From Bacilli bacterium (GTDB lineage: Bacteria > Bacillota_I > Bacilli_A > RFN20 > CAG-826), in assembly GCA_017940265.1 (NCBI GenBank), contig JAGAYY010000025.1, forward strand, positions 64,711 to 128,710: 64,000 bases of DNA. Direction: 5' to 3'. Under the pieces are notes generated by a model. The model worked only from the letters and a program-made list of their open reading frames with translations, searched no databases and had not been told where the DNA came from. Numbering within the stretch: the first letter of the stretch is position 1; every line of letters starts with the position of its first letter. Positions 8,594 through 48,545 of the stretch are shown in pieces. A program made the position numbers and the translations under genes.

Positions 8594-8855
8594 ATCTACG
8601 ATTATTGATCTAGGATTCAAAGAAATTATTGATAAAAGAATATGGTTCGAATCTCCAGAAGCTTATACCTTTTATGATTATGGTGAAGGATCAATTATGT
8701 TTAGGGTTAAAGAAGACCTCGGATATTGGTTCACCACTGGAAAGGACGGAACTTATATGATTGCTGGAACTAATGCCCAAAGATATCTGACTACCAATCC
8801 TTTCGAAATAATCCAAATAATTTCTTACCTCGTTCTCGTTGAGAGCGGGGATTAA
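8586..8855 (+). CDS. small-module protein, family B
   Basis: 89 aa; IIDLGFKEI...RIWFESPEAYTFYDY. Confidence 0.5.
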   Translation: MFRSTIIDLGFKEIIDKRIWFESPEAYTFYDYGEGSIMFRVKEDLGYWFTTGKDGTYMIAGTNAQRYLTTNPFEIIQIISYLVLVESGD

Positions 8856-9045
8856 TTTTTGTCCACTTTTTTTCGGCCAAGGGAACGAGGGAGTTAGCCC
8901 CTTAATGCCTATCTGCCGATATACGGCATTAAGGCCGCTGCGCGGAAGGCTAAAGCCATTGAACTCCTCCCCTATAAAATTTCCAATTTTTTGTGGAAAA
9001 AGCACTTGTATAGTATTTTCCCTATTTCTAGTTAATAAAATGGAC

Positions 9046-9093
9046 ATTTCACGCTTCTGAAGCCTTAATAACCTTATGAGTGATAATGATGGG
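9046..9093 (+). promoter_or_regulatory. copy of recurrent intergenic motif (ACGC..GAAGCcTTaAATAACCTTA..TGATGGG)
   Basis: Aligns with the copies at 14368, 29583 and 50001; lies about 80 nt upstream of the helicase-like gene start. Confidence 0.45.
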
Positions 9094-9171
9094 TTTAATG
9101 TTTTCCGATTCCCTTGGCTTTTTAGGTTTCGGAAGAACATTAAATTAATAACAATAAATTTATTAATTATT

Positions 9172-11199
9172 ATGTTAAAAAATTATTTTATACAAAGAGA
9201 TGGAAAGACAGTTATATATGTAGAGCGAGGTATTAGATATATGAGCGAATGGACTGATTTCAATCTCAATTTTTTCAATGGTCCTTACATTATAAATAAA
9301 CAAATCCCAGGATGTGGATTTACTGAGTATTGCTTAACCAATAATAATGATATAATATTAGCTTCTCCACGTAAAATACTTTTAGCTAATAAAGAAAATC
9401 AACATCCAGGTGAGATTTTTTATGCTAGGAATGAATTTGAAAAAGAAGATTTAGGTGTAGATAAAGATATATCTATTCCAAATAAACAGAGCTCTGAACC
9501 AGACGAAGAAAACGAAGCGAAAAGAATACATAATGAATTATGTGCTCTAGAGAAAATGGAAGAGAAATTAATGAATTATATTAGTTCTAGACTTATACAA
9601 AGAAAACCTATGAAACTTATTGTTACTTATGACTCTTTTCACCATGTAAGAGAAATTCTAGAGAAAAATTCAATCTTTAAACCTTTTAAGATAGTAGTCG
9701 ATGAATTCCAATCAGTTTTTGTAGACTCTAGATTTAAAGCTTCAACAGAATTTGGTTTTATGAATGAACTAAAACAGGTAAATAATGACATCTGTTTCGT
9801 TAGTGCTACTCCTATGATGGATAAATATCTTAAACAGATTGATTATTTTAAAAATTTACCTTATTATGAATTAGACTGGGGATTTCTAGATCCAGGTAGA
9901 GTTATTAAACCTGAGCTTAAAGTCCGTAAAATTAAATCTGTCTGTTTTGAAATTAAAAGAATTATTGAAGAATATCTAAAAGGGGAGTTTGCTATATTGG
10001 CTAATCCAGTTACTAGCGAATTAGTCCAGTCTACTGAGGCCGTATTTTACGTTAATTCTGTAAACGATATTCTTAAAGTTATTAAAACAATGGGACTTAC
10101 TCCAGATCAAGTTAATATTCTTTGTTCAGATACAACTATTAACCGCAGGAGAATACAGAGAAAATTAGGGAAGAAGTTTGAAATTGGATCGGTCCCATTA
10201 AGGGGTGAGCCTCATAAGATGTTTACTTTTTGTACTAGAACAGTTTACCTTGGAGCTGATTTCTATAGTACTAATGCTAGAAGTTTTATATTATCTGATG
10301 CTAACATAGATTCATTAGCTGTTGATATATCATTGGATCTTCCTCAAATTCTAGGAAGGCAAAGATTAGCTGAGAATCCCTGGAAAAATCATGCGGAATT
10401 CTATTTTAAAACTCTGGGAAAAGAGAAAGATATTACTGAGGATGCATTTAATTCTAGAGTAAAATCTAAATTAGAGTCTACTAATCATAGAATCTCTTTA
10501 TTTATGAAAGGAACTGATACGGAACAAAAAGCTATTATCGGAAACTTTCGAGATAGTATAGTATTAAGAAATTATTCAAATGACTATATCTCTATTAACT
10601 ATAACGGAGGAAGAGAAGTTCCAGTTCTTAATAATTTAGTATTAGTTGCTGAACAGAGAGCTTATGATATTCAACAAATAGATTATAAGGATAGATTTTC
10701 AGTTTTTAATACTATAAATGAGAGTGACGGTTTTAAAATGGATAAAATAAGTAGATTTGTTGAATACTTGAGAGATACTACTTATTCTATTCCAATTAGA
10801 TTAAAAGCCCTATGTGAAACTGATGAATTCTCTGAAGATGAAAAAAGAATTATAGCACAGCAAGCTTCAGAAAATTTTGATAAATACTATAATTTACTTG
10901 GTCCAGAAAGATGTAGAGCAGTTGGATATGATACTACTAGAATTCGAAAGGAAATTTCTGACATGATGATTTCCGAAGAAGATGTCAAAGTACTAATAAT
11001 GGAAAAGTTTTTGGTTGGAAAAAGGTATACTAATGTTTTTATTAAAGAAGAATTAGGAAAAATTTATTCTCAATTAAAACTAGCTAGATCACCAAAAGCT
11101 TCTGATATTGATCTGTACTTAGAAACTAAACCTGTTAAAATATTGGATCAAAATACCCAAAAACGGATACATGGTTTAGAAATTATAAAAATTAAATAA
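9172..11199 (+). CDS. SF2 helicase-like protein with non-canonical motif I, cassette copy 1
   Basis: Motifs PGCGFTEY (I, no Lys), ILASPRKILL (Ia), VVDEFQS (II), VSATP (III), QILGRQR (VI). Start chosen by alignment with the paralog at 45500. Confidence 0.7.
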   Translation: MLKNYFIQRDGKTVIYVERGIRYMSEWTDFNLNFFNGPYIINKQIPGCGFTEYCLTNNNDIILASPRKILLANKENQHPGEIFYARNEFEKEDLGVDKDISIPNKQSSEPDEENEAKRIHNELCALEKMEEKLMNYISSRLIQRKPMKLIVTYDSFHHVREILEKNSIFKPFKIVVDEFQSVFVDSRFKASTEFGFMNELKQVNNDICFVSATPMMDKYLKQIDYFKNLPYYELDWGFLDPGRVIKPELKVRKIKSVCFEIKRIIEEYLKGEFAILANPVTSELVQSTEAVFYVNSVNDILKVIKTMGLTPDQVNILCSDTTINRRRIQRKLGKKFEIGSVPLRGEPHKMFTFCTRTVYLGADFYSTNARSFILSDANIDSLAVDISLDLPQILGRQRLAENPWKNHAEFYFKTLGKEKDITEDAFNSRVKSKLESTNHRISLFMKGTDTEQKAIIGNFRDSIVLRNYSNDYISINYNGGREVPVLNNLVLVAEQRAYDIQQIDYKDRFSVFNTINESDGFKMDKISRFVEYLRDTTYSIPIRLKALCETDEFSEDEKRIIAQQASENFDKYYNLLGPERCRAVGYDTTRIRKEISDMMISEEDVKVLIMEKFLVGKRYTNVFIKEELGKIYSQLKLARSPKASDIDLYLETKPVKILDQNTQKRIHGLEIIKIK

Positions 11200-21835: not shown

Positions 21836-22030
21836 ATGAAAAATAAAATATATATTTATAACAAAACCGGGAACCAATATCGTGTTCTCGGTGATGCAAA
21901 ATTCAAACACCCAGAGACTCGTGAATGGGTGAAGTGTATAATCTATCAATCTGTAGATACCGGTGAAACCTATGTCAGAGAAACCGGAGAATTTATGGAG
22001 AGATTTACAGAACAAATTAAATCTTTTTAA
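21836..22030 (+). CDS. DUF1653-like small protein
   Basis: IY.....G..Y.VLG.AKF..PET.EWV...IYQS...GETYVRE..EF fits the DUF1653 pattern. Confidence 0.55.
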   Translation: MKNKIYIYNKTGNQYRVLGDAKFKHPETREWVKCIIYQSVDTGETYVRETGEFMERFTEQIKSF

Positions 22031-22031
22031 T

Positions 22032-22961
22032 ATGCTAGTAATTAAAAGAGATGAAACAAGAGAGGCCTTTAATCTTGAAAAAATTCATAAGGCTGTAGAT
22101 GCAACTTTTAAAAGTTGTGGGTTACAAATTTCTCAAGGTGTGTTAGATGATTTAGATAAGTATGTTGAAGATAATCTAGATCTTGCTCGTGAGGAAGATA
22201 TCGAAGTTGATGAAATTCATAATGTTGTCGAACAATTCCTTATGAAAAATAATTTTTTCGATGTTTCTCGTGAATATATACTTTGTCGTCATCATAAGGC
22301 ACTAGAAAGAGCTGAACATGAACGTCTTACTAAGGGTATCTCTGAAAAACTTGCAGCGTCTAATGTACAAAACCAAAATGCTAATCTAGATGAACATTCA
22401 TTTGGTGGGCGTATCGGAGAGGCAAGCAGATATGTAACAAAAGACTTTGCTCTAAACTTCTGTATGAGCAAGATGTCAAAAAAGAATCATTTAAATAATG
22501 AAATTTATATTCATGATTTAGATTCTTATGCAGTTGGTATGCATAACTGTTTAACTATTCCATTTGATGATCTTCTTGCTAATGGATTTAACACTAGACA
22601 AGTAGATATAAGACCAGCAAATAGTATTAATACTGCGTTTCAATTAATTGCAGTAATTTTTCAAATTCAAAGCTTACAACAGTTTGGAGGGGTATCAGCA
22701 AGTCATCTTGACTGGACAATGGTACCTTATGTAAGAAAATCTTTTTATAAACATTATAAAGAAGGTTTAGAATTTATTCTAGATTATACAGAAGACCAAA
22801 TAGAAAATTTTGACATAGATGATACTATGTCAATTGAAAGTGATAAATATAAAAGTGAGCAGAAAGTATATGACTATGCTATGAAGCTTACAACAAAAGA
22901 GCTAAATCAGGCTGCAGAAGGAATATATCATAATCTCAATAGTCTGCAGTCACGTTCCGGT
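22032..22961 (+). CDS. nrdD: anaerobic ribonucleoside-triphosphate reductase, exon 1
   Basis: N-terminal ATP-cone-like VIKRDETREAFNLEKI. The NrdD-like sequence ends at ...NSLQSRSG and resumes at 24140. Confidence 0.8.
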
Positions 22962-24139
22962 AAAACAAAAGTTGCCGCACTAATTAGTTAGTGAAACATT
23001 CCGTAAAATCGGTGAAGACTAAAAATAAATTTTTTAAAATTATGAAACGAACTAGTCCAGATATTGAAAAACAGGTTATAAGTGAGTATAATAATGGAAA
23101 ATCTTTATCTAAGCTTGGAGAATCTTATGGATTAAGTCCAGTTACAGTACTTAATATTTTAAAAAGAAATAATATTCAAGTACGAACTAAAGGAGGAATT
23201 TATAAACTAGATGAAGACTCTATTATAAATAAATATAAATCTGGTAAATCATGTAGGGAAATTGCAGAAGAAAATGGTGTATGCCTAAAAACAATATGTA
23301 ATACTCTAGAAAAGAATAATATAGCCAGAGATAATATCTATCACAATAAAAGCCTAATTTCTAATTATTGGGAAGAAATCAATACATACGATAAGGCATA
23401 TTTCCTTGGGGTTTTTAATAACCGATGGAAATGTTTTTGGGAATAATGTTCGTTTGCAACTTTCTAGCAAAGATGAATATATTTTAAAAATATTTTCAGA
23501 TAAAACAAATAATAGCAATAATATTAACATTGACAAACGAGGGTTCTCATCTTTTAATATAAAACGAAAAGTATGGGTCGAAGATTTATCCAAGTATGGA
23601 GTTATTCCAAATAAAACAAAATCTGTATATCTACCTAGTATAAGAGAAGATCTAATGTCTCATTTACTTAGAGGTATTTTTTGATGGGGATGGTTGGATA
23701 ACATTAAAGGGTCATACTATTGGTCTATGTGGAAATGAATTATTAACTACACAGGTCAGAGATTATCTAGTTAGTACTTTGAGCGTATATAATGTAAAAG
23801 TTATCAAGAATAATGATAATCTTTGGAGTGTGTCTTGGGCTAGTAAAAAAGATATAAAATTAATAGGTGACTACCTCTATAAAGATAAAAATAATTGCTA
23901 TTTAGTTAGAAAGTTTAATAATTTTGAAAGTATTATTCATGTTGATACCGAGGTAAGTTCTGATATTTCGAAAGGATCAGAAACACCGTAGAGCATAGGA
24001 AGTGAATAAATATAATCTTCCCACGAGTATGGAACATCTTAGGATGAAAATATATGCCGAACTGGACCAGAATTAACTGGTTATAATGAGAGAAATCTCC
24101 AGATCTATAGGATAAAAAGCCTATAGGATAACACAATTG
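22962..24139 (+). mobile_element. group I-type intron interrupting nrdD (boundaries inferred)
   Basis: Exon 1 ends in T and the insert ends in G. Removing the insert joins LQSRSG to NQLPFTSLNYG in frame. The insert has stops in the exon frame and carries a homing-endonuclease ORF. Confidence 0.65.
23042..23991 (+). pseudogene. LAGLIDADG homing endonuclease with two N-terminal HTH repeats, broken by two frameshifts
   Basis: The motifs YFLG(F)LITDGNV and IFDGDGWITLKG become contiguous only if one G is removed from the run at 23408-23411 and one T from the run at 23677-23682. Confidence 0.65.
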
Positions 24140-25393
24140 AACCAACTTCCATTTACAAGTTTAAATTATGGAACTTGTACTCTTATTGAGGGTAAAATGG
24201 TAATCAAAGCTCTTTTAGAAGGATCTATTAAAGGTGTTGGAAAATTCCATAAAACACCAATCTTCCCTTGCGGTATTTTCCAATACATGAAAGGTGTAAA
24301 TGATAAACCAGGAACACCAAACTATGAACTATATCGTTTAGCTTTAGAGTCTACTTCCAAACGACTTTATCCCAATTATGCAAACGTAGATTGGAGCGGA
24401 AATGCCGGATATGATATAAATGATCCTAGAACTTATTTCAGCACAATGGGTTGTAGGACAGCTAATGGATATGATATAAATGGGCTCGGTCAGCTTAAAG
24501 ATGGAAGAGGAAATATCTGTCCTGTTACGATTATTCTTCCTACACTAGCTATGGAAGCCGATCGTGATGTTGAAAAATTTATGCGTCTCTTAGGAAGAAA
24601 AATTAAAGAGGCCAAAGATATGTTGATTGAAAGATTCAATTGGATTTGTGGCCAAAGTCCAGAGTCTGCACGTTTTATGTATGAGAATAATACTATGGCC
24701 GGTTATATTCCAGAAGAAGGAATAAGATCCGCACTTAAACATGGAACTATAGTAATTGGTCAACTTGGTTTAGCAGAAACTCTTCAATTATTAATAGGCA
24801 CTGATCATACTACCGAAGAAGGAATGAAATTAGCTAAGCGTATTGAATCTTTATTTAAGAAACGTTGTGCAGAATATAAAGAAGAGTATAAATTAAATTT
24901 TGGCGTTTATTTCACTCCAGCAGAAAATCTATGTTATACTGCGTTAAAGAAGTTTAGAACTAAATATGGGATAATCCCTAACGTTAGTGACAGAGAATTT
25001 TTCACCAATTCAATTCATGTTCCTGTTTGGAGAGATATGGATCCTTTTGAAAAGATTGATATTGAATCACAATTAACGGGTTATTCTTCTGCAGGATGTA
25101 TTACGTATGTAGAGCTTCCTTCAACTACAATGCACAATATCGATGCTCTTGAAACACTAGTAAATTATGCAATGGACCACGACATTCCTTATTTTGCTTG
25201 TAATCTTCCAAATGATATCTGTAATGGATGTGGGTATACTGGTGAATTCAATGATAAATGTCCTCAATGTGGTTCTACAGATATTAGTCAACTGAGACGA
25301 GTGACTGGGTATCTTACTGGTGATTATAAATCTGCATTTAACATAGGAAAACAAGACGAGGTTGAAAATAGAGTAAAACATATTAAAAACTAA
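24140..25393 (+). CDS. nrdD: anaerobic ribonucleoside-triphosphate reductase, exon 2
   Basis: NQLPFTSLNYGT, a C-terminal Cys4 ribbon CNGCGY...CPQCGS, and the glycyl-radical motif RRVTGYL. Confidence 0.85.
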   Translation, partial: NQLPFTSLNYGTCTLIEGKMVIKALLEGSIKGVGKFHKTPIFPCGIFQYMKGVNDKPGTPNYELYRLALESTSKRLYPNYANVDWSGNAGYDINDPRTYFSTMGCRTANGYDINGLGQLKDGRGNICPVTIILPTLAMEADRDVEKFMRLLGRKIKEAKDMLIERFNWICGQSPESARFMYENNTMAGYIPEEGIRSALKHGTIVIGQLGLAETLQLLIGTDHTTEEGMKLAKRIESLFKKRCAEYKEEYKLNFGVYFTPAENLCYTALKKFRTKYGIIPNVSDREFFTNSIHVPVWRDMDPFEKIDIESQLTGYSSAGCITYVELPSTTMHNIDALETLVNYAMDHDIPYFACNLPNDICNGCGYTGEFNDKCPQCGSTDISQLRRVTGYLTGDYKSAFNIGKQDEVENRVKHIKN

Positions 25394-44389: not shown

Positions 44390-44765
44390 AGAAATAGCAG
44401 AAAAATACATCGACCTATTTATTATGCTGGTCGAAAAAGCTGGACGTGAAACAGGAAACAACTCATACCTTAAGGTTGATGAAATTCTTAAGGAAAAGTG
44501 TGGTGGAATGTATGAGAAGATATACCAGGATGAACCGGAATTTAATATCTTTGTTTGTATCTTGATAGTTAATGTCTTCTATGATATCTATGGTGACGAG
44601 CTTTCTTCCTGGGATTCGGATACTGCAGGAGATAAACTAACCGAATTTTATACCCTCTACCTAAAGAAAGCCACCAAGAAATTTTGCTCAAGTTATGGTC
44701 TTCCGGTTTTTGATGACCCAGAGACCTCATTTGCAATGAAAAAGTATGTCATTAAAAAGAATTGA
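44379..44765 (+). CDS. hypothetical protein
   Basis: 128-aa ORF. Confidence 0.5.
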   Translation: MTYKEIAEKYIDLFIMLVEKAGRETGNNSYLKVDEILKEKCGGMYEKIYQDEPEFNIFVCILIVNVFYDIYGDELSSWDSDTAGDKLTEFYTLYLKKATKKFCSSYGLPVFDDPETSFAMKKYVIKKN

Positions 44766-45051
44766 TATAGTCGTTTATATAGTAGCTACCGGACCTATCT
44801 ATCTCACACCCCTGAAGACAAGCGTAATGGTAGGGGAAACAAAAGAAGAAGCAGTAGTCCGGAGTTGTGAGGAAGCTGGATTAGATGTCTCAGAACTAGA
44901 TCCTCCATATAAGCTGAAGGAAATTAATACCCCAGAAGCTTATGTGACTTATTATGTTTACCAAACTGAGGCCTCTGATCTCAGGGACTTCGTAGCGCAG
45001 GCCAATAATCCGGAACTTAAAGTGGTGGAGGGCACAGTTGAGAGCTTCTGA
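44746..45051 (+). CDS. hypothetical protein
   Basis: 101-aa ORF. Confidence 0.45.
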   Translation: MSLKRIDIVVYIVATGPIYLTPLKTSVMVGETKEEAVVRSCEEAGLDVSELDPPYKLKEINTPEAYVTYYVYQTEASDLRDFVAQANNPELKVVEGTVESF

Positions 45052-45066
45052 AGGTTTTATTTCTTA

Positions 45067-45113
45067 AAATCATATACCTAGTTATCATAGATAACATAAT
45101 ATATGATTTTTTT
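45067..45113 (+). terminator. intrinsic terminator (nested hairpin plus T-run)
   Basis: AAATCATATA...TATATGATTT outer stem, GTTATC/GATAAC inner stem, followed by TTTTTTT. Confidence 0.7.
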
Positions 45114-45344
45114 ATTTCATCTTGGGTCGCCCACCTAGCCCCTCCTCACTTCGTTCGTCGTTGCCCGACCCAAGACTCTGTTCAGGAGACCTGAACAAGA
45201 GGATATCATTATCTCTCCTGAGGTTTTTTAACCGAAGGGAGAGACATAATCAGGGGACCTCTAAGGGACCCTGATATGACATAGATTCTAACGAAGTAGT
45301 AAGGGCTTGTCCCGAACGTTAAGAATCTTTTTGTATATAATAAG

Positions 45345-45401
45345 ACGCACACTTTTTTCTCTTATTAGGAAAAATGAAATTTTGGAAGAAAAAGTGTGCG
45401 T
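45345..45401 (+). promoter_or_regulatory. 13-bp inverted repeat upstream of cassette 2
   Basis: ACGCACACTTTTT...AAAAAGTGTGCGT separated by about 30 nt, followed by TTTTGC; about 100 nt before the ATG at 45500. Confidence 0.55.
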
Positions 45402-45499
45402 TTTGCTCTTAAAGAGGGCTCAAATCCTAATATATGAATGACAAGAAGCTCTCAACTGTAATTTTGAGAGCTCAGAACAATTTAAAAATAAAAACAAAA

Positions 45500-47545
45500 A
45501 TGGAAAAACATAACATTATTGTACCAAGAGGAATTAGATATATTAGTGATTGGAAAGAATATAATCTTAGAGACTTTCCTTTTCCTCACATCTTAGATAA
45601 AGTATTAACTGGGTGTGGTTATACTGAATACTGTCTCAGAAATGATCAGGATCTAATTCTATGTAGTCCACGAAGAATGCTTTTAGAAAATAAAGAACAG
45701 CAACATCGTGGAGAAATTTTTTATGCTCGAAACGAAGCATGTGATGAAGAATTTGATAGAGTTTTTACAGAAAGCGAAGGAAAAAAGAAAGCAAATCAAA
45801 AAATAATTTATTACACTGATAATACTAGTAGTACATCTTCAATAATTCTAAAGTTAAAACAAGATGTAATTTATTATTATAATAAGAGAAAATCCGAAGG
45901 TAAACCAGTTAAAATTATTGTTACTTATGATTCTTTTCGCCATGTTAAAGAAACTCTATTAAGTTTTAATCTTTTCCAAAATTTTCAGGTAGTAGTCGAT
46001 GAATTTCAATCGGTTCTAGTAGATGTAAAATTTAAATCCAATACCGAATTAGAATTATTAAATCAGCTCTTAGGAATTCAGAGGGTATGTTTTGTATCCG
46101 CTACTCCCATGTTAGATAAATATCTAGGTAGACTAGATGAATTCAAAGAATTGCCTTATTATAAGTTAGATTGGGAAACTAAGGATCCTGGACGTATTAT
46201 TAATCCTAACCTTCAAGTGCATAAAACTGACAGTATTTTTAAAGATATTACTAAAATAATAACAAAATATCAAAATAATCAATTTGATGCTGAATCTTGG
46301 GTGGATGATAGTGGGTTGATTCATGAAACTCAATCTAGAGAAGCAGTCATATATGTTAATTCAGTTAAGACTATTTGTAGTGTAATTACTAGATTTGGAT
46401 TGACTTTAGATAATACTAATATTCTATGTGCAAGAACACCAGATAATGAAGAAAAACTTCGAAAATCATTTAACGAAGTCCAAAAAAGATCTGGACTTGA
46501 TAAAAAATATAAGAAAGAAGATCAAATCATAGGATATATTCCAAGAAAAGGTGAGCCTCATAAGATGTTTACCTTCTGTACTCGAACTGTATACTTAGGG
46601 GCGGATTTCTATTCTACTTGTGCTAAGACTTATATTTTTAGCGACAGTAATATAGAATGTCTATCTGTTGATATTTCCCTAGATCTTCCTCAAATTCTGG
46701 GAAGACAGAGATTAGATGAAAATCCTTGGAAAAATTCAGCTGATCTCTATATTAAAAGTACTTTGGCTAAATTGTCTAGAGAAGATTTTGATAGAGAATT
46801 AAAACAGAAAATAGAAATTACCAATGATCTTCTTCTTTCTTATAATACAACTCCAACTAATAAAGCAAAACATTCGTTAGCTTCTGCTTATGAAGACAGA
46901 GTTAAGAGCCTATCTTATAAAAAAGATTATGTAGCAGTTAACCATCATGCAGGTTCAGATCTTATCCCGGTATTCAATAACCTAATGCTAGTAGCAGACG
47001 AAAGATCTTTCGATATTCAACAGATAGATTATAAAGATAGAGTTTCTGTGTTTAATACCTTGAAGAATAAAGGATTTATTACAATTGATGTTGATAAAGA
47101 ATTAGAAACCTTTAACAGTATTCCTTATTATCATGATAAGATGAGATACGTTTGCCAGCTTAGTAATACTCTAGACTCTATACATTTTGATCTATTTCTT
47201 AATTCTATCTCTAAAGATTATAAAAATTATTACGTTGTATTAGGTTCAGAAGGATGCAGTGCTTGTAAATTTAGGAGAAAAGAAATGGAAATAGAATATC
47301 AAAGGATAATAGGAAATCAAAGAGTAGATTTTCATTTAGAATTAGATAAACAATTTAAAGTGGGAGAAAGGTATCTATTTTCTGATATAAAGAAAATCCT
47401 GACTGAAATTTATAATTTAGTTGGATATCAACAAACTCCAAAAGCAACTGATCTTGAGGAGTGGTATGTTCTCAAATCTTGTCAGATTACTAATCCAATA
47501 ACAAAGAAAAGAGAACATGGTTATAAAATATTAGCTAAGAAATGA
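45500..47545 (+). CDS. SF2 helicase-like protein with non-canonical motif I, cassette copy 2
   Basis: TGCGYTEY, ILCSPRRMLL, VVDEFQS, VSATP, QILGRQR; start by alignment with copy 1 (the ORF opens at 45434). Confidence 0.7.
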   Translation: MEKHNIIVPRGIRYISDWKEYNLRDFPFPHILDKVLTGCGYTEYCLRNDQDLILCSPRRMLLENKEQQHRGEIFYARNEACDEEFDRVFTESEGKKKANQKIIYYTDNTSSTSSIILKLKQDVIYYYNKRKSEGKPVKIIVTYDSFRHVKETLLSFNLFQNFQVVVDEFQSVLVDVKFKSNTELELLNQLLGIQRVCFVSATPMLDKYLGRLDEFKELPYYKLDWETKDPGRIINPNLQVHKTDSIFKDITKIITKYQNNQFDAESWVDDSGLIHETQSREAVIYVNSVKTICSVITRFGLTLDNTNILCARTPDNEEKLRKSFNEVQKRSGLDKKYKKEDQIIGYIPRKGEPHKMFTFCTRTVYLGADFYSTCAKTYIFSDSNIECLSVDISLDLPQILGRQRLDENPWKNSADLYIKSTLAKLSREDFDRELKQKIEITNDLLLSYNTTPTNKAKHSLASAYEDRVKSLSYKKDYVAVNHHAGSDLIPVFNNLMLVADERSFDIQQIDYKDRVSVFNTLKNKGFITIDVDKELETFNSIPYYHDKMRYVCQLSNTLDSIHFDLFLNSISKDYKNYYVVLGSEGCSACKFRRKEMEIEYQRIIGNQRVDFHLELDKQFKVGERYLFSDIKKILTEIYNLVGYQQTPKATDLEEWYVLKSCQITNPITKKREHGYKILAKK

Positions 47546-47546
47546 T

Positions 47547-48545
47547 ATGATTTATTTAATTAAATCCGCCGCATTTAAAGAGGGTGGAGGATATGAAACT
47601 ATTTTAAAAATTGGATATGCAAGTGAGAATTCTATGAGATATAGAGAAACTGCTTATCGTACTGAAAATCCAACTTTTAAAATTATTCAAACGATCCATG
47701 GAGGAGACTTACAAGATGAAACAAATCTACATTATAAGTTTTGTCATCTCCTGAGATATGGAAGAGAATGGTTTAGTGAGGATGAAGAGATTTATGAATT
47801 TTTCAGATCTCACACTACAAAAGAATCATTACAAGATCTAGAAACACATTATTCAATACGAAAACAAAAAATTATAGACTCTGAAGAAAAACTTAGGCCT
47901 AGTAGACTTAGTTGGATGATAGGGAAAGTTTTAGAAACAAAATCAGGGATTGATTATATTTTATCTCTAGAAGAATTGATAAATACATTAGGATCTTTAA
48001 AATCTGATAAAGATAAACAAGAATTCTTAGTATTAACTTATCCAGATATAAATTTTGAGCAACAAGCCATAACATCAGACGGAGTATTAGGTGCTCTCAA
48101 TACCTTCAATTCTTTCCCGACTTTTGCAGAGAAACTTAGATACATACATGAAGTTGAAGTTACTCTAGGATCTGAACAAATGCCGCTGTTCCTAGATTCA
48201 ATTCCTCTTAAATTTAAAAATTATTATCTGGTGTTTGGTGATACTAGGCTTAAGGCACTGGAGTATCGAGAAATAGAAATTACTAGAGAATGGGAAAGGA
48301 TTAAAAATAACTCAGAACTAGAAAGAGATCTGATTTCAGCTATTGAATCCGTTTTCAAGGTTGGTGAAAGATATACTAAGGCTCAGATCAAAGAAAAACT
48401 TCGAGAAATCTATCAGGAACTAGGATATAAACAGTCGCCAAAAGCTACAGACCTAGAAAAATGGTTTATATTAAAGTCTATTATGTTTACAAATAAAGAA
48501 ACAGGTAAACGTGATGCTGGTTTTGAAATCTTAAGCCGGAAATAA
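47547..48545 (+). CDS. T5orf172 (GIY-YIG-like) domain protein, cassette copy 2
   Basis: IYLIKS...LKIGYASENSMRYRE...YGREWFSE; its C-terminal 140 aa are homologous to the C-terminus of 45500..47545. Confidence 0.7.
   Translation: MIYLIKSAAFKEGGGYETILKIGYASENSMRYRETAYRTENPTFKIIQTIHGGDLQDETNLHYKFCHLLRYGREWFSEDEEIYEFFRSHTTKESLQDLETHYSIRKQKIIDSEEKLRPSRLSWMIGKVLETKSGIDYILSLEELINTLGSLKSDKDKQEFLVLTYPDINFEQQAITSDGVLGALNTFNSFPTFAEKLRYIHEVEVTLGSEQMPLFLDSIPLKFKNYYLVFGDTRLKALEYREIEITREWERIKNNSELERDLISAIESVFKVGERYTKAQIKEKLREIYQELGYKQSPKATDLEKWFILKSIMFTNKETGKRDAGFEILSRK

Follow-up and report, generated by a model that had tools for sequence, protein, structure and literature searches.

Archaeal chromosomes can replicate from several origins, as with the oriC1/Orc1-1, oriC2/Orc1-3 and oriC3/WhiP pairs of Sulfolobus and the orc-ori pairs of haloarchaea. 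In the model for UL9 of herpes simplex virus 1 (HSV-1) the origin forms hairpins, and hairpins also make up the single-strand initiation (ssi) signals and complementary-strand origins represented by RSF1010 ssiA and ssiB, the phiX174 n' site and the minus-strand origins of G4 and M13. To our knowledge, by contrast, it is not known how replication starts in phage genomes of 370-390 kb, and no origin has been defined for the uncultured gut and rumen clade treated here. In this wholly computational study we describe a non-coding gap at positions 45052-45499 of a 64,000-nt stretch of DNA (hereafter the window; C18:64711-128710) from C18, a 376-kb contig that, together with 62 others, makes up a 1.73-Mb assembly. 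C18 carries the features of a jumbo phage, among them GroEL, a split NrdD, a Mre11-Rad50 fusion and tRNAs. The gap lies directly ahead of a gene for a superfamily 2 (SF2) helicase-like protein, and we put at roughly 0.5 the probability that, as comparison of the copies suggests, this gap is the cis half of an origin-like module and the adjacent gene its trans half. An earlier note on this DNA had proposed a stable RNA or a regulatory leader tied to the gene cassette; because strand bias flips at the cassette sites, the region looks to us more like part of a replication origin than like an RNA leader.

The arrangement is repeated along the genome. C18 encodes nine paralogs of the ~700-aa helicase-like protein, each behind a GC-rich, hairpin-dense gap, and the nine cassettes, at 29.4, 73.5, 109.9, 150.2, 185.0, 231.4, 273.5, 299.2 and 345.7 kb on C18, lie at a mean distance of 39.6 kb with a coefficient of variation (CV) of 0.17 (p=3e-5 against nine random points). 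In a related 367-kb phage (IMGVR_UViG_3300035283_000164, hereafter G001) seven copies are spaced with a CV of 0.19 (p=1e-4), and the helicase-like paralogs alternate strictly in orientation (-,+,-,+,-,+,-). If the sites are bidirectional origins, an excess of G on the plus strand is predicted rightward of each site, and an excess of C on the approach to the next one. We examined GC skew at third codon positions in these two genomes, using crude longest-ORF (open reading frame) gene calls and regressing out the coding-strand effect. In the values below, those for bins, half-intervals and slopes exclude the helicase and nuclease genes, and those for contrasts use all called genes.

Residual skew in the first eighth of the interval: C18 +0.148, G001 +0.091
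Residual skew in the last eighth of the interval: C18 -0.078, G001 -0.078
Intervals in which the first half exceeds the second: C18 8/8, G001 6/6
Slope of the residual against relative position: C18 -0.16, G001 -0.24
Phase-shifted null for that slope: C18 0.015 +/- 0.018, G001 0.064 +/- 0.094
Null draws reaching the observed slope: C18 0/3000, G001 0/3000
Right-minus-left contrast at offset 0: C18 0.103, G001 0.178
Sites with a positive contrast: C18 8/9, G001 7/7
p against random site sets: C18 0.0004, G001 <0.0002

The switch in the sign of strand skew predicted for an origin is found at the sites in both phages. The right-minus-left contrast is maximal at offset 0 in each genome, and the effect is present in plus-strand genes alone and in minus-strand genes alone. 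In G001 the residuals stay between +0.04 and +0.09 throughout the first half of the interval and between -0.06 and -0.10 throughout the second, and 62% of the genes run in the direction of the inferred forks (p=7e-6). At the site of the gap itself the contrast is +0.086.

The protein encoded beside each site belongs to a family of more than 5000 homologs, found on contigs of up to 394 kb and without a Pfam domain. An AlphaFold (AF2) model of the copy adjoining the gap (predicted local distance difference test, pLDDT, 79) has the fold of an SF2 helicase. Foldseek matches it to Hjm/Hel308, Brr2, RecQ/WRN and HSV-1 UL9 bound to OriS, with UL9 showing the highest query TM-score (0.31) among the 50 matches listed, and the last elements of the model (a helix, a strand, two helices and two strands) look winged-helix-like. 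In our reading of the alignment the Walker A motif has no lysine (TGCGYTE here, GCG[FY]TE in the family), and the DEFQ, SATP and QILGRQR motifs are retained. At the sequence level we found no match of the protein to UL9, Pfam or PDB. Together, the even spacing, the skew switch and an SF2 fold with UL9 among its matches point to an origin-like role at the level of DNA. We would go one step further, at somewhat less than even odds, and propose that the giant gut and rumen phages of this clade (370-390 kb) replicate from seven to nine evenly spaced, separately licensed origins, and that each candidate origin is a self-contained, four-part replicator in which an inverted repeat brackets conserved hairpins that fold as single-stranded DNA or RNA, together with paralog-specific binding sites and a gene encoding a UL9-like SF2 initiator that lacks the lysine and belongs to that origin.

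The features on which this proposal draws at the present locus, which we call copy A, are as follows.

45034-45049, plus strand: left arm, ACAGTTGAGAGCTTCT, of a long-range inverted repeat, overlapping the stop codon of ORF 44746-45051
45066-45086/45090-45110 (to 45113), either strand: AT-rich quasi-palindrome with 21-nt arms, 81% complementary, -12.2 kcal/mol, followed by T7
45120-45129/45166-45175, plus strand: hairpin P1, a 10-bp stem TCTTGGGTCG/CGACCCAAGA with a 36-nt C-rich loop CCCACCTAGCCCCTCCTCACTTCGTTCGTCGTTGCC
45176-45201, plus strand: hairpin P2 (inverted repeat I9), core arms 45179-45186/45190-45197, 11-bp stem, one bulge, AGA loop
45202-45207, plus strand: conserved GATATC box, directly after P2
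45212-45218/45238-45244, plus strand: hairpin P3, TCTCTCC/GGAGAGA, an inverted repeat that is also in the minimum free energy structure
45249-45260/45264-45275, plus strand: hairpin P4, ATCAGGGGACCT/AGGGACCCTGAT, likewise an inverted repeat and in the minimum free energy structure
45283-45333, plus strand: stem AGATTCTAACG/CGTTAAGAATCT around GGGCTTGTCCC (inverted repeat I14), then T5, with the look of a terminator in copy A only
45342-45357/45389-45404, either strand: paralog-specific paired sites ACGCACACTTTTT/AAAAAGTGTGCGT, inverted (inverted repeat I2, 13-16 bp)
45394-45440, plus strand: phage promoter-like motif, C18 consensus AAATTGAAAATACGCGCTTCAGAAGGCCTGAAAACCTTATAAATGA (nhmmer)
45444-45459, plus strand: right arm, AGAAGCTCTCAACTGT, of the long-range inverted repeat; if the motif is a promoter, the 5' untranslated region (UTR) opens with this arm
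45447-45472, plus strand: local hairpin AGCTCTCAA/TTGAGAGCT (inverted repeat I7, 9/9 pairs) in the presumed 5' UTR
45500-47545, plus strand: SF2 helicase-like gene of cassette 2, 42% identical to the paralog of cassette 1 at window 9076-11199
47547-48545, plus strand: downstream gene, residues 184-333 of which match the helicase C-terminus at 45% identity (tblastn)

The gap runs from the end of a 101-aa ORF (44746-45051) to ATG 45500, the start of the helicase-like gene by family consensus and one shared with its homologs. As the earlier note held, it contains no credible ORF: the ORF listing gives only frames of 44-50 codons across it, and conservation of these is excluded by the complete divergence of the copies beyond P2. 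The note had ended its leader at 45433, and although the gap is real it extends to 45499, since the listed start, ATG 45434, falls within the promoter-like motif. Every stem it drew, six inverted repeats in all, was recovered in place by an inverted-repeat search, and the density of structure is equally clear: the plus strand of the 320-nt region folds at -107.6 kcal/mol against -78 +/- 4.8 in dinucleotide shuffles (z -6.1), and the minus strand at z -4.0. The supposed G+C enrichment is true in part, in that G+C reaches 0.44-0.45 over 45100-45324 and 0.51 in P1-P2 against a C18 mean of 0.36 and 0.23-0.34 in the downstream gene, but the upstream gene is already at 0.39-0.43. What had been called a strong terminator at 45067-45113 is a GC-poor hairpin of about -12 kcal/mol: the quasi-palindrome looks like a bidirectional terminator, and the terminator scan does not call it, the G-C pairs being too few.

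Two of the hairpins are held in common by a subset of the copies. The type-1 copies that share P1 and P2 number five, namely A (here), B (185 kb), C (231 kb), D (29 kb) and E (273 kb), and a P1-P2 covariance model finds exactly these five in the 1.73-Mb assembly, all upstream of helicase paralogs. Across 84 related loci the same model adds one, in an IMG/VR phage (L015), and a second relative (L010) has a recognisable P1-P2-GATATC arrangement of different sequence; L010 and L015 each have a hairpin homologous to P1, and in both the GATATC box follows P2. The architecture is kept in phages whose helicases are ~45% identical. In P1, all ten pairs are kept in six sequences, six of the ten are changed on both sides, and every cell of the comparison is paired; the covariation score is not equalled in any of 500 shuffles, and controls in which the arms are slid fall to 22-59% paired. 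Copies A, B and C have the same 36-nt loop in P1. P2 shows compensatory replacements between copies A/B and C/D/E, as read from the alignments. Conserved structure with such support is confined to P1 and P2, with P3-P5 unconserved across copies. Between copies, identity is 79-100% over the two modules but 67-74% over the adjacent genes, and neither stem contains a G-U pair. To judge from these sequences, selection acts on P1 and P2 as hairpins; the earlier note had suggested covariance analysis against related phages, and compensatory changes are present. Because its loop spans 36 nt, P1 cannot extrude from duplex DNA and must therefore function in unwound DNA or in RNA. A target for the loop in trans was sought throughout the assembly, and no significant complementarity was found outside the element; the only partner, a weak one, lies within it at 45290-45307.

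Downstream of the hairpins lies a 48-nt promoter-like motif (consensus ...CGCGCTTCAGAAGGCCTGAAAACCTTATAAATGA) with 37 nhmmer matches at E<0.01, all in C18 and none on the 62 other contigs. The motif typically stands 50-120 nt ahead of a start codon and once ahead of a tRNA gene, and it is therefore most simply read as a phage promoter; it occurs 60-120 nt ahead of the start codon in nine of nine paralogs. In copy A it sits 3' of nearly all of the structure, P1-P5 included, so that the hairpin region is probably not a proximal 5' leader. A second promoter at the left arm was considered and rejected, nhmmer having detected none there, and no promoter motif was found 5' of the hairpins even at E<10. 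The leader that the earlier note proposed thus keeps the compensatory changes in P1 and P2 on its side and has the position of the only recognisable promoter, 3' of nearly all hairpins, against it. Its tie to the cassette is firmer, since a related region precedes all nine C18 paralogs and their homologs in other jumbo phages. The motif also contains an ATG. In cassettes 1 and 2 this ATG is in frame with the helicase-like gene, and at the 149-kb paralog (C18:150063-149880, minus strand) it opens a 34-codon frame that ends at the helicase start with a ATGAATAA overlap; ORF listers therefore over-extend the cassette genes at their 5' ends.

Immediately upstream of the promoter motif are the paired sites, ~45 nt apart around a spacer of ~30% G+C, the 3' site abutting the motif. 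The 13-bp stem of the earlier note is present here, but its 3' arm is the upstream edge of the promoter motif, and in three other copies the corresponding pair is a direct repeat. More generally, the 36 nt that lead up to the promoter core have a significant second copy no more than 190 nt away in six of the nine paralogs, inverted in copy A and in the 149-kb and 346-kb paralogs, direct in B, C and D, and paralog-specific in sequence. Sites that are direct in one copy and inverted in another are unlike a conserved RNA hairpin and like paired protein-binding sites. They do not make an iteron array, which would have at least three direct repeats of 17-22 bp, there being one extra copy of the site per paralog, in either orientation.

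Two further repeats enclose the hairpins. The long-range arms at 45034-45049 and 45444-45459 are complementary at 16 of 16 nt, with a score unmatched in 100 shuffles; copies B, C and D have arms of 16-22 nt whose differences preserve complementarity, the arms are significant in four of the nine copies, and relatives carry arms of unrelated sequence at the same two positions. By our reading the mismatches that do occur oppose C to A in copies B and D and G to U in copy C. The right arm has an alternative partner in the hairpin at 45447-45472, and every paralog has a hairpin in that position, each of different sequence. Between the left arm and P1, the 45 nt of the quasi-palindrome (45066-45110) are the exact reverse complement of those in copies C (C18:231540-231584) and D (C18:29196-29254), a flip/flop that implies inversion at the level of DNA or hairpin-mediated copying of a small element. 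An invertible promoter was also considered, as inverted repeats flank the promoter motif; among 89 upstream regions no segment in the opposite orientation was found, and only the quasi-palindrome is flipped. A DNA-level element is thus favoured by four properties of the gap: paired sites that are direct or inverted by copy, a quasi-palindrome that flips, conserved stems with Watson-Crick pairs only, and a promoter 3' of the hairpins.

From these parts the general course of initiation at an origin-like module can be pictured, and here we infer binding, melting and priming, as well as the DNA or RNA nature of the folded hairpins. Consider a phage genome on which nine modules, ~40 kb apart, act as origins. 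The helicase-like protein would be produced from the promoter within the module, and its C-terminal domain would bind the paired sites by that promoter (45345-45357/45389-45401) and possibly also the 16-nt bracketing arms. The protein would then open the AT-rich spacer, and forks would depart in both directions. Once their strand is single-stranded, P1-P2 and the variable hairpins after them could fold and serve as loading or priming signals, the part that ssi signals play for plasmids and single-stranded DNA phages; alternatively, the hairpins could take part in this step as an RNA copy.

At the same time, a number of observations weigh against an origin. Some concern the genome-wide pattern: in C18 only 46% of genes are co-oriented with the inferred forks, which is not significant; switches in gene orientation were not found at the C18 cassettes, which lie mostly within co-directional gene blocks; and cassette 1, also in this window (C18:73.5 kb), has no skew jump (-0.028). 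Transcription can also generate GC skew at third codon positions, and the gene calls behind the skew are crude. Others concern the parts of the module. The supposed unwinding spacer has ~30% G+C in a genome of 36%, the paired sites are two only, and a conserved loop as long as 36 nt on a stem of 10 bp is a form met more typically in RNA than in DNA cruciforms. The protein lacks the Walker A lysine, its similarity to UL9 is structural only, with an E-value no better than those of Hel308, Brr2 and RecQ, and nine separate initiators for nine origins would be unusual.

The alternative that survives best is that the hairpins act as a structured RNA, either a long 5' leader or a small RNA that starts just past the quasi-palindrome and regulates or partners the helicase-like protein. 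On long transcripts, pairing of the left arm with the right would sequester the mRNA 5' end or direct its processing, and the idea is compatible with an RNA-primed origin. We consider it unlikely, though it accounts well for several of our results: the strong folding (z -6.1 on the plus strand, -4.0 on the minus), a covarying P1 stem around a large conserved loop that duplex DNA could not extrude, 51% G+C in P1-P2 within an AT-rich genome, and an arm complementarity that copies A, B, C and D maintain through different changes. In relatives the corresponding regions form a nested multi-helix structure (M2-M3) with G-U pairs in five columns when read on the plus strand and in two on the minus strand, and a TATATGAT box resembling the -10 part of the phage promoter stands 12 nt ahead of P1 in four of the five copies. 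Set against this are the missing promoter motif and the one or two terminator-like hairpins 5' of the hairpins, the lack of a conserved terminator after them, and equivocal signs of a preferred strand. P1 and P2 are free of G-U pairs, and the arm mismatches, C-A as well as G-U, favour neither strand. Over 80 upstream regions the folding-energy difference between strands is -5.5 +/- 12.7 kcal/mol, and the G-U share of pairs is 9.2% on the plus strand and 8.5% on the minus. The 13-bp stem, besides, is a direct repeat in three copies.

Searches for a known RNA agree with this assessment. The earlier note had named a match to a described element as one thing to check, and no Rfam family was matched at gathering or permissive thresholds. 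A gathering-level scan of the window with Rfam 15 returned tRNAs only, a permissive scan of 44600-46000 gave chance-level matches (the best to mir-1, 23.6 bits against a threshold of 45.6), nothing at E<0.1-1 came from the four other copies, from the cassette-1 region or from three relatives, and ARAGORN found no tRNA or tmRNA (transfer-messenger RNA) in the gap. A role as an anti-Shine-Dalgarno mimic was rejected because the phage's own genes lack Shine-Dalgarno motifs.

Next comes the possibility, in our view quite improbable, that the region is a selfish or recombinogenic repeat with no role of its own, spread among the cassettes and kept alike by gene conversion, in the manner of T4 PeSL cassettes, repetitive extragenic palindromes and bacterial interspersed mosaic elements (REP/BIME) or miniature inverted-repeat transposable elements (MITEs). 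The distribution of hairpin modules has something of this character. P3 and P4 (inverted repeats I13 and I5) are common to copies A and B only, with a near-identical counterpart at C18:184807-185004; the GGGCTTGTCCCGAACG box of 45283-45333 recurs in copies B and D, and its T-run has no counterpart in other copies; and beyond P2, copies C, D and E bear other hairpins, so that the modules are distributed as a mosaic. Copies A and B share a near-identical block of ~200 nt with sharp edges beside genes that are 69% identical, the quasi-palindrome has opposite orientations in different copies, the segments next to the promoter occur twice, and some cassettes include a mobile-looking nuclease gene. 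Repeats of the REP/BIME or MITE kind, however, occupy many unrelated intergenic sites, and the five P1-P2 copies all precede helicase paralogs, in the same order and orientation and nowhere else in 1.73 Mb. The P1-P2-GATATC series persists where the helicases have diverged to ~45% identity, and the compensatory changes beside a conserved loop point to selection on the hairpin itself.

Least probable of all is ordinary intergenic punctuation, in which the hairpins would do no more than end or stabilise the transcript from upstream and keep the helicase promoter insulated: hairpins with T-runs at 45066-45113 and 45283-45333, the promoter motif that comes next and the 5'-UTR hairpin that follows many C18 promoters speak for it, but the terminator scan of the plus strand is empty, P1 and P2 have no T-runs and track the helicase paralogs while the upstream genes vary by copy, and the conserved 36-nt loop and the long-range arms are left unexplained. 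The selfish repeat and punctuation alike fit less well than an origin-like module because the copies never occur away from the paralogs and the architecture persists at ~45% helicase identity.

The remaining cassettes of C18 have a second type of element, represented in the window at 8830-9076, upstream of cassette 1, and found at four paralogs (73, 149, 299 and 346 kb). It has GC-rich hairpins of its own, in which TTAATGCC...GGCATTAA is swapped for TTAAATGTC...GACATTTAA in two copies, and a weaker pair of arms, GCCAAGGGAA/TTCCCTTGGC. Beyond the relatives described above, the element is hard to trace. A DNA similarity search of GenBank phages gave a single match, 89 nt long and lying within the helicase gene; in IMG/VR, an exact-pattern scan for P1 gave two chance matches, both in GC-rich phages; a pattern scan of metagenome contigs for P1 gave 115 matches, none with the hairpin context; and a literature search for such elements returned nothing relevant.

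In many IMG/VR relatives (L009, L013, L014, L016, L028, L029, L033-L039 and others) the tblastn match to the helicase-like protein spans ~3.0 kb rather than ~2.0 kb, which suggests that ~1 kb has been inserted in the gene, be it as intron, intein or nested ORF. The ninth C18 paralog (C18:346026-347992) is matched in two pieces, 346026-346781 and 346823-347992, and may be frameshifted or interrupted. In cassette 2 the C-terminal ~150 aa of the downstream gene product repeat the helicase C-terminus; its cassette-1 counterpart has a T5orf172/MUG113 nuclease domain in Pfam, and a Pfam search of the cassette-2 protein gave no T5orf172 match. Elsewhere in the window, the gene for NrdD, the anaerobic ribonucleotide reductase, is split between ORF 21963-22991 (profile positions 2-154) and ORF 24137-25393 (155-562). 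The two halves (window 21963-25393) are ~1.1 kb apart, with small ORFs at 22991-23446 and 23406-23684 between them, and the interruption looks like an intron or homing-endonuclease insertion; the gathering-level Rfam scan of the window called no group I intron there. As for the host, Shine-Dalgarno-like motifs precede 13% of C18 genes but 51% of those on the other contigs. This scarcity, together with the restriction of the promoter motif to C18, indicates that the phage contig was probably mis-binned and that its host is probably not the organism of the assembly.

If the modules are origins, each C18-like genome offers nine mapped candidate sites, a function can be assigned to more than 5000 unnamed helicase-like proteins, and the hairpin block of the gap becomes a loading or priming signal. 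A virus of bacteria would then provide a case of multi-origin replication with origin-specific initiators, in a replicon laid out in archaeal or eukaryote-like fashion. If instead the hairpins act as RNA, they would represent a new class of helicase-associated RNA. The origin idea is directly testable through the read-depth profiles of public metagenomes.

How, then, does the module compare with known systems? Among RNAs, the ROOL, GOLLD and HEARO families and the origin transcripts ColE1 RNA II and T4 oriF/oriG resemble the region in being GC-enriched, multi-hairpin, non-coding and found in phage genomes, and the origin transcripts adjoin replication functions, as the gap is proposed to do. 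The region differs from all of them in its lack of an Rfam match, its rapid mosaic change and the absence of a recognisable promoter ahead of the hairpins. For the cassette genes, the closest parallel is Odn of phage ICP1, a T5orf172 nuclease whose RepA_N origin-binding domain is that of its target, PLE (PMC8263062). There, as here, a T5orf172-type nuclease gene shares a nucleic-acid-binding module with an initiator-like protein, and the re-use of the helicase C-terminal module by a neighbouring gene recalls Odn, a precedent for such borrowing from an initiator. In the present phage, unlike ICP1, the nuclease and initiator-like genes are neighbours in one genome, and the downstream protein of cassette 2 lacks the T5orf172 match.

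For the hairpins, the nearest relatives in design are the ssi signals, generally one to three adjacent hairpins over 40-150 nt that work only as single strands, with stems that vary while pairing is kept and loops or bulges that are read by sequence. P1 and P2 would be alike in these respects, but the P1 loop, at 36 nt, is much larger, and an ssi-like role for them is suggested by analogy. With HSV-1 OriS/OriL and UL9 (PDB 9hgi/9hgj) the module shares, as modelled, an SF2 helicase fold to which a C-terminal domain is added, and inverted sites, here putative, that flank an AT-rich spacer. It differs in that there is no similarity of sequence, the phage protein has no Walker A lysine, each site has a paralog of its own, and the phage arms lie 400 nt apart rather than ~20, with the promoter and ~200 nt of hairpins between them.

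The overall plan is most like that of the archaeal multi-origin chromosomes, in which each of several origins lies next to the gene for an initiator paralog of its own, an AT-rich stretch is framed by inverted repeats and the skew switches at the site. Yet the candidate initiator of the phage module is an SF2 helicase-like protein, not an AAA+ Orc1/Cdc6 protein, the replicon is a phage, and its seven to nine nearly even sites carry GC-rich hairpins with conserved loops, in an origin role that is here predicted. In this context the module is nearest in its working to the archaeal multi-origin systems, to HSV OriS-UL9 and to the ssi signals, and yet it is a member of none of these classes, because its initiator class differs from the archaeal one, its link to UL9 is structural only, and its role as an origin is a prediction.

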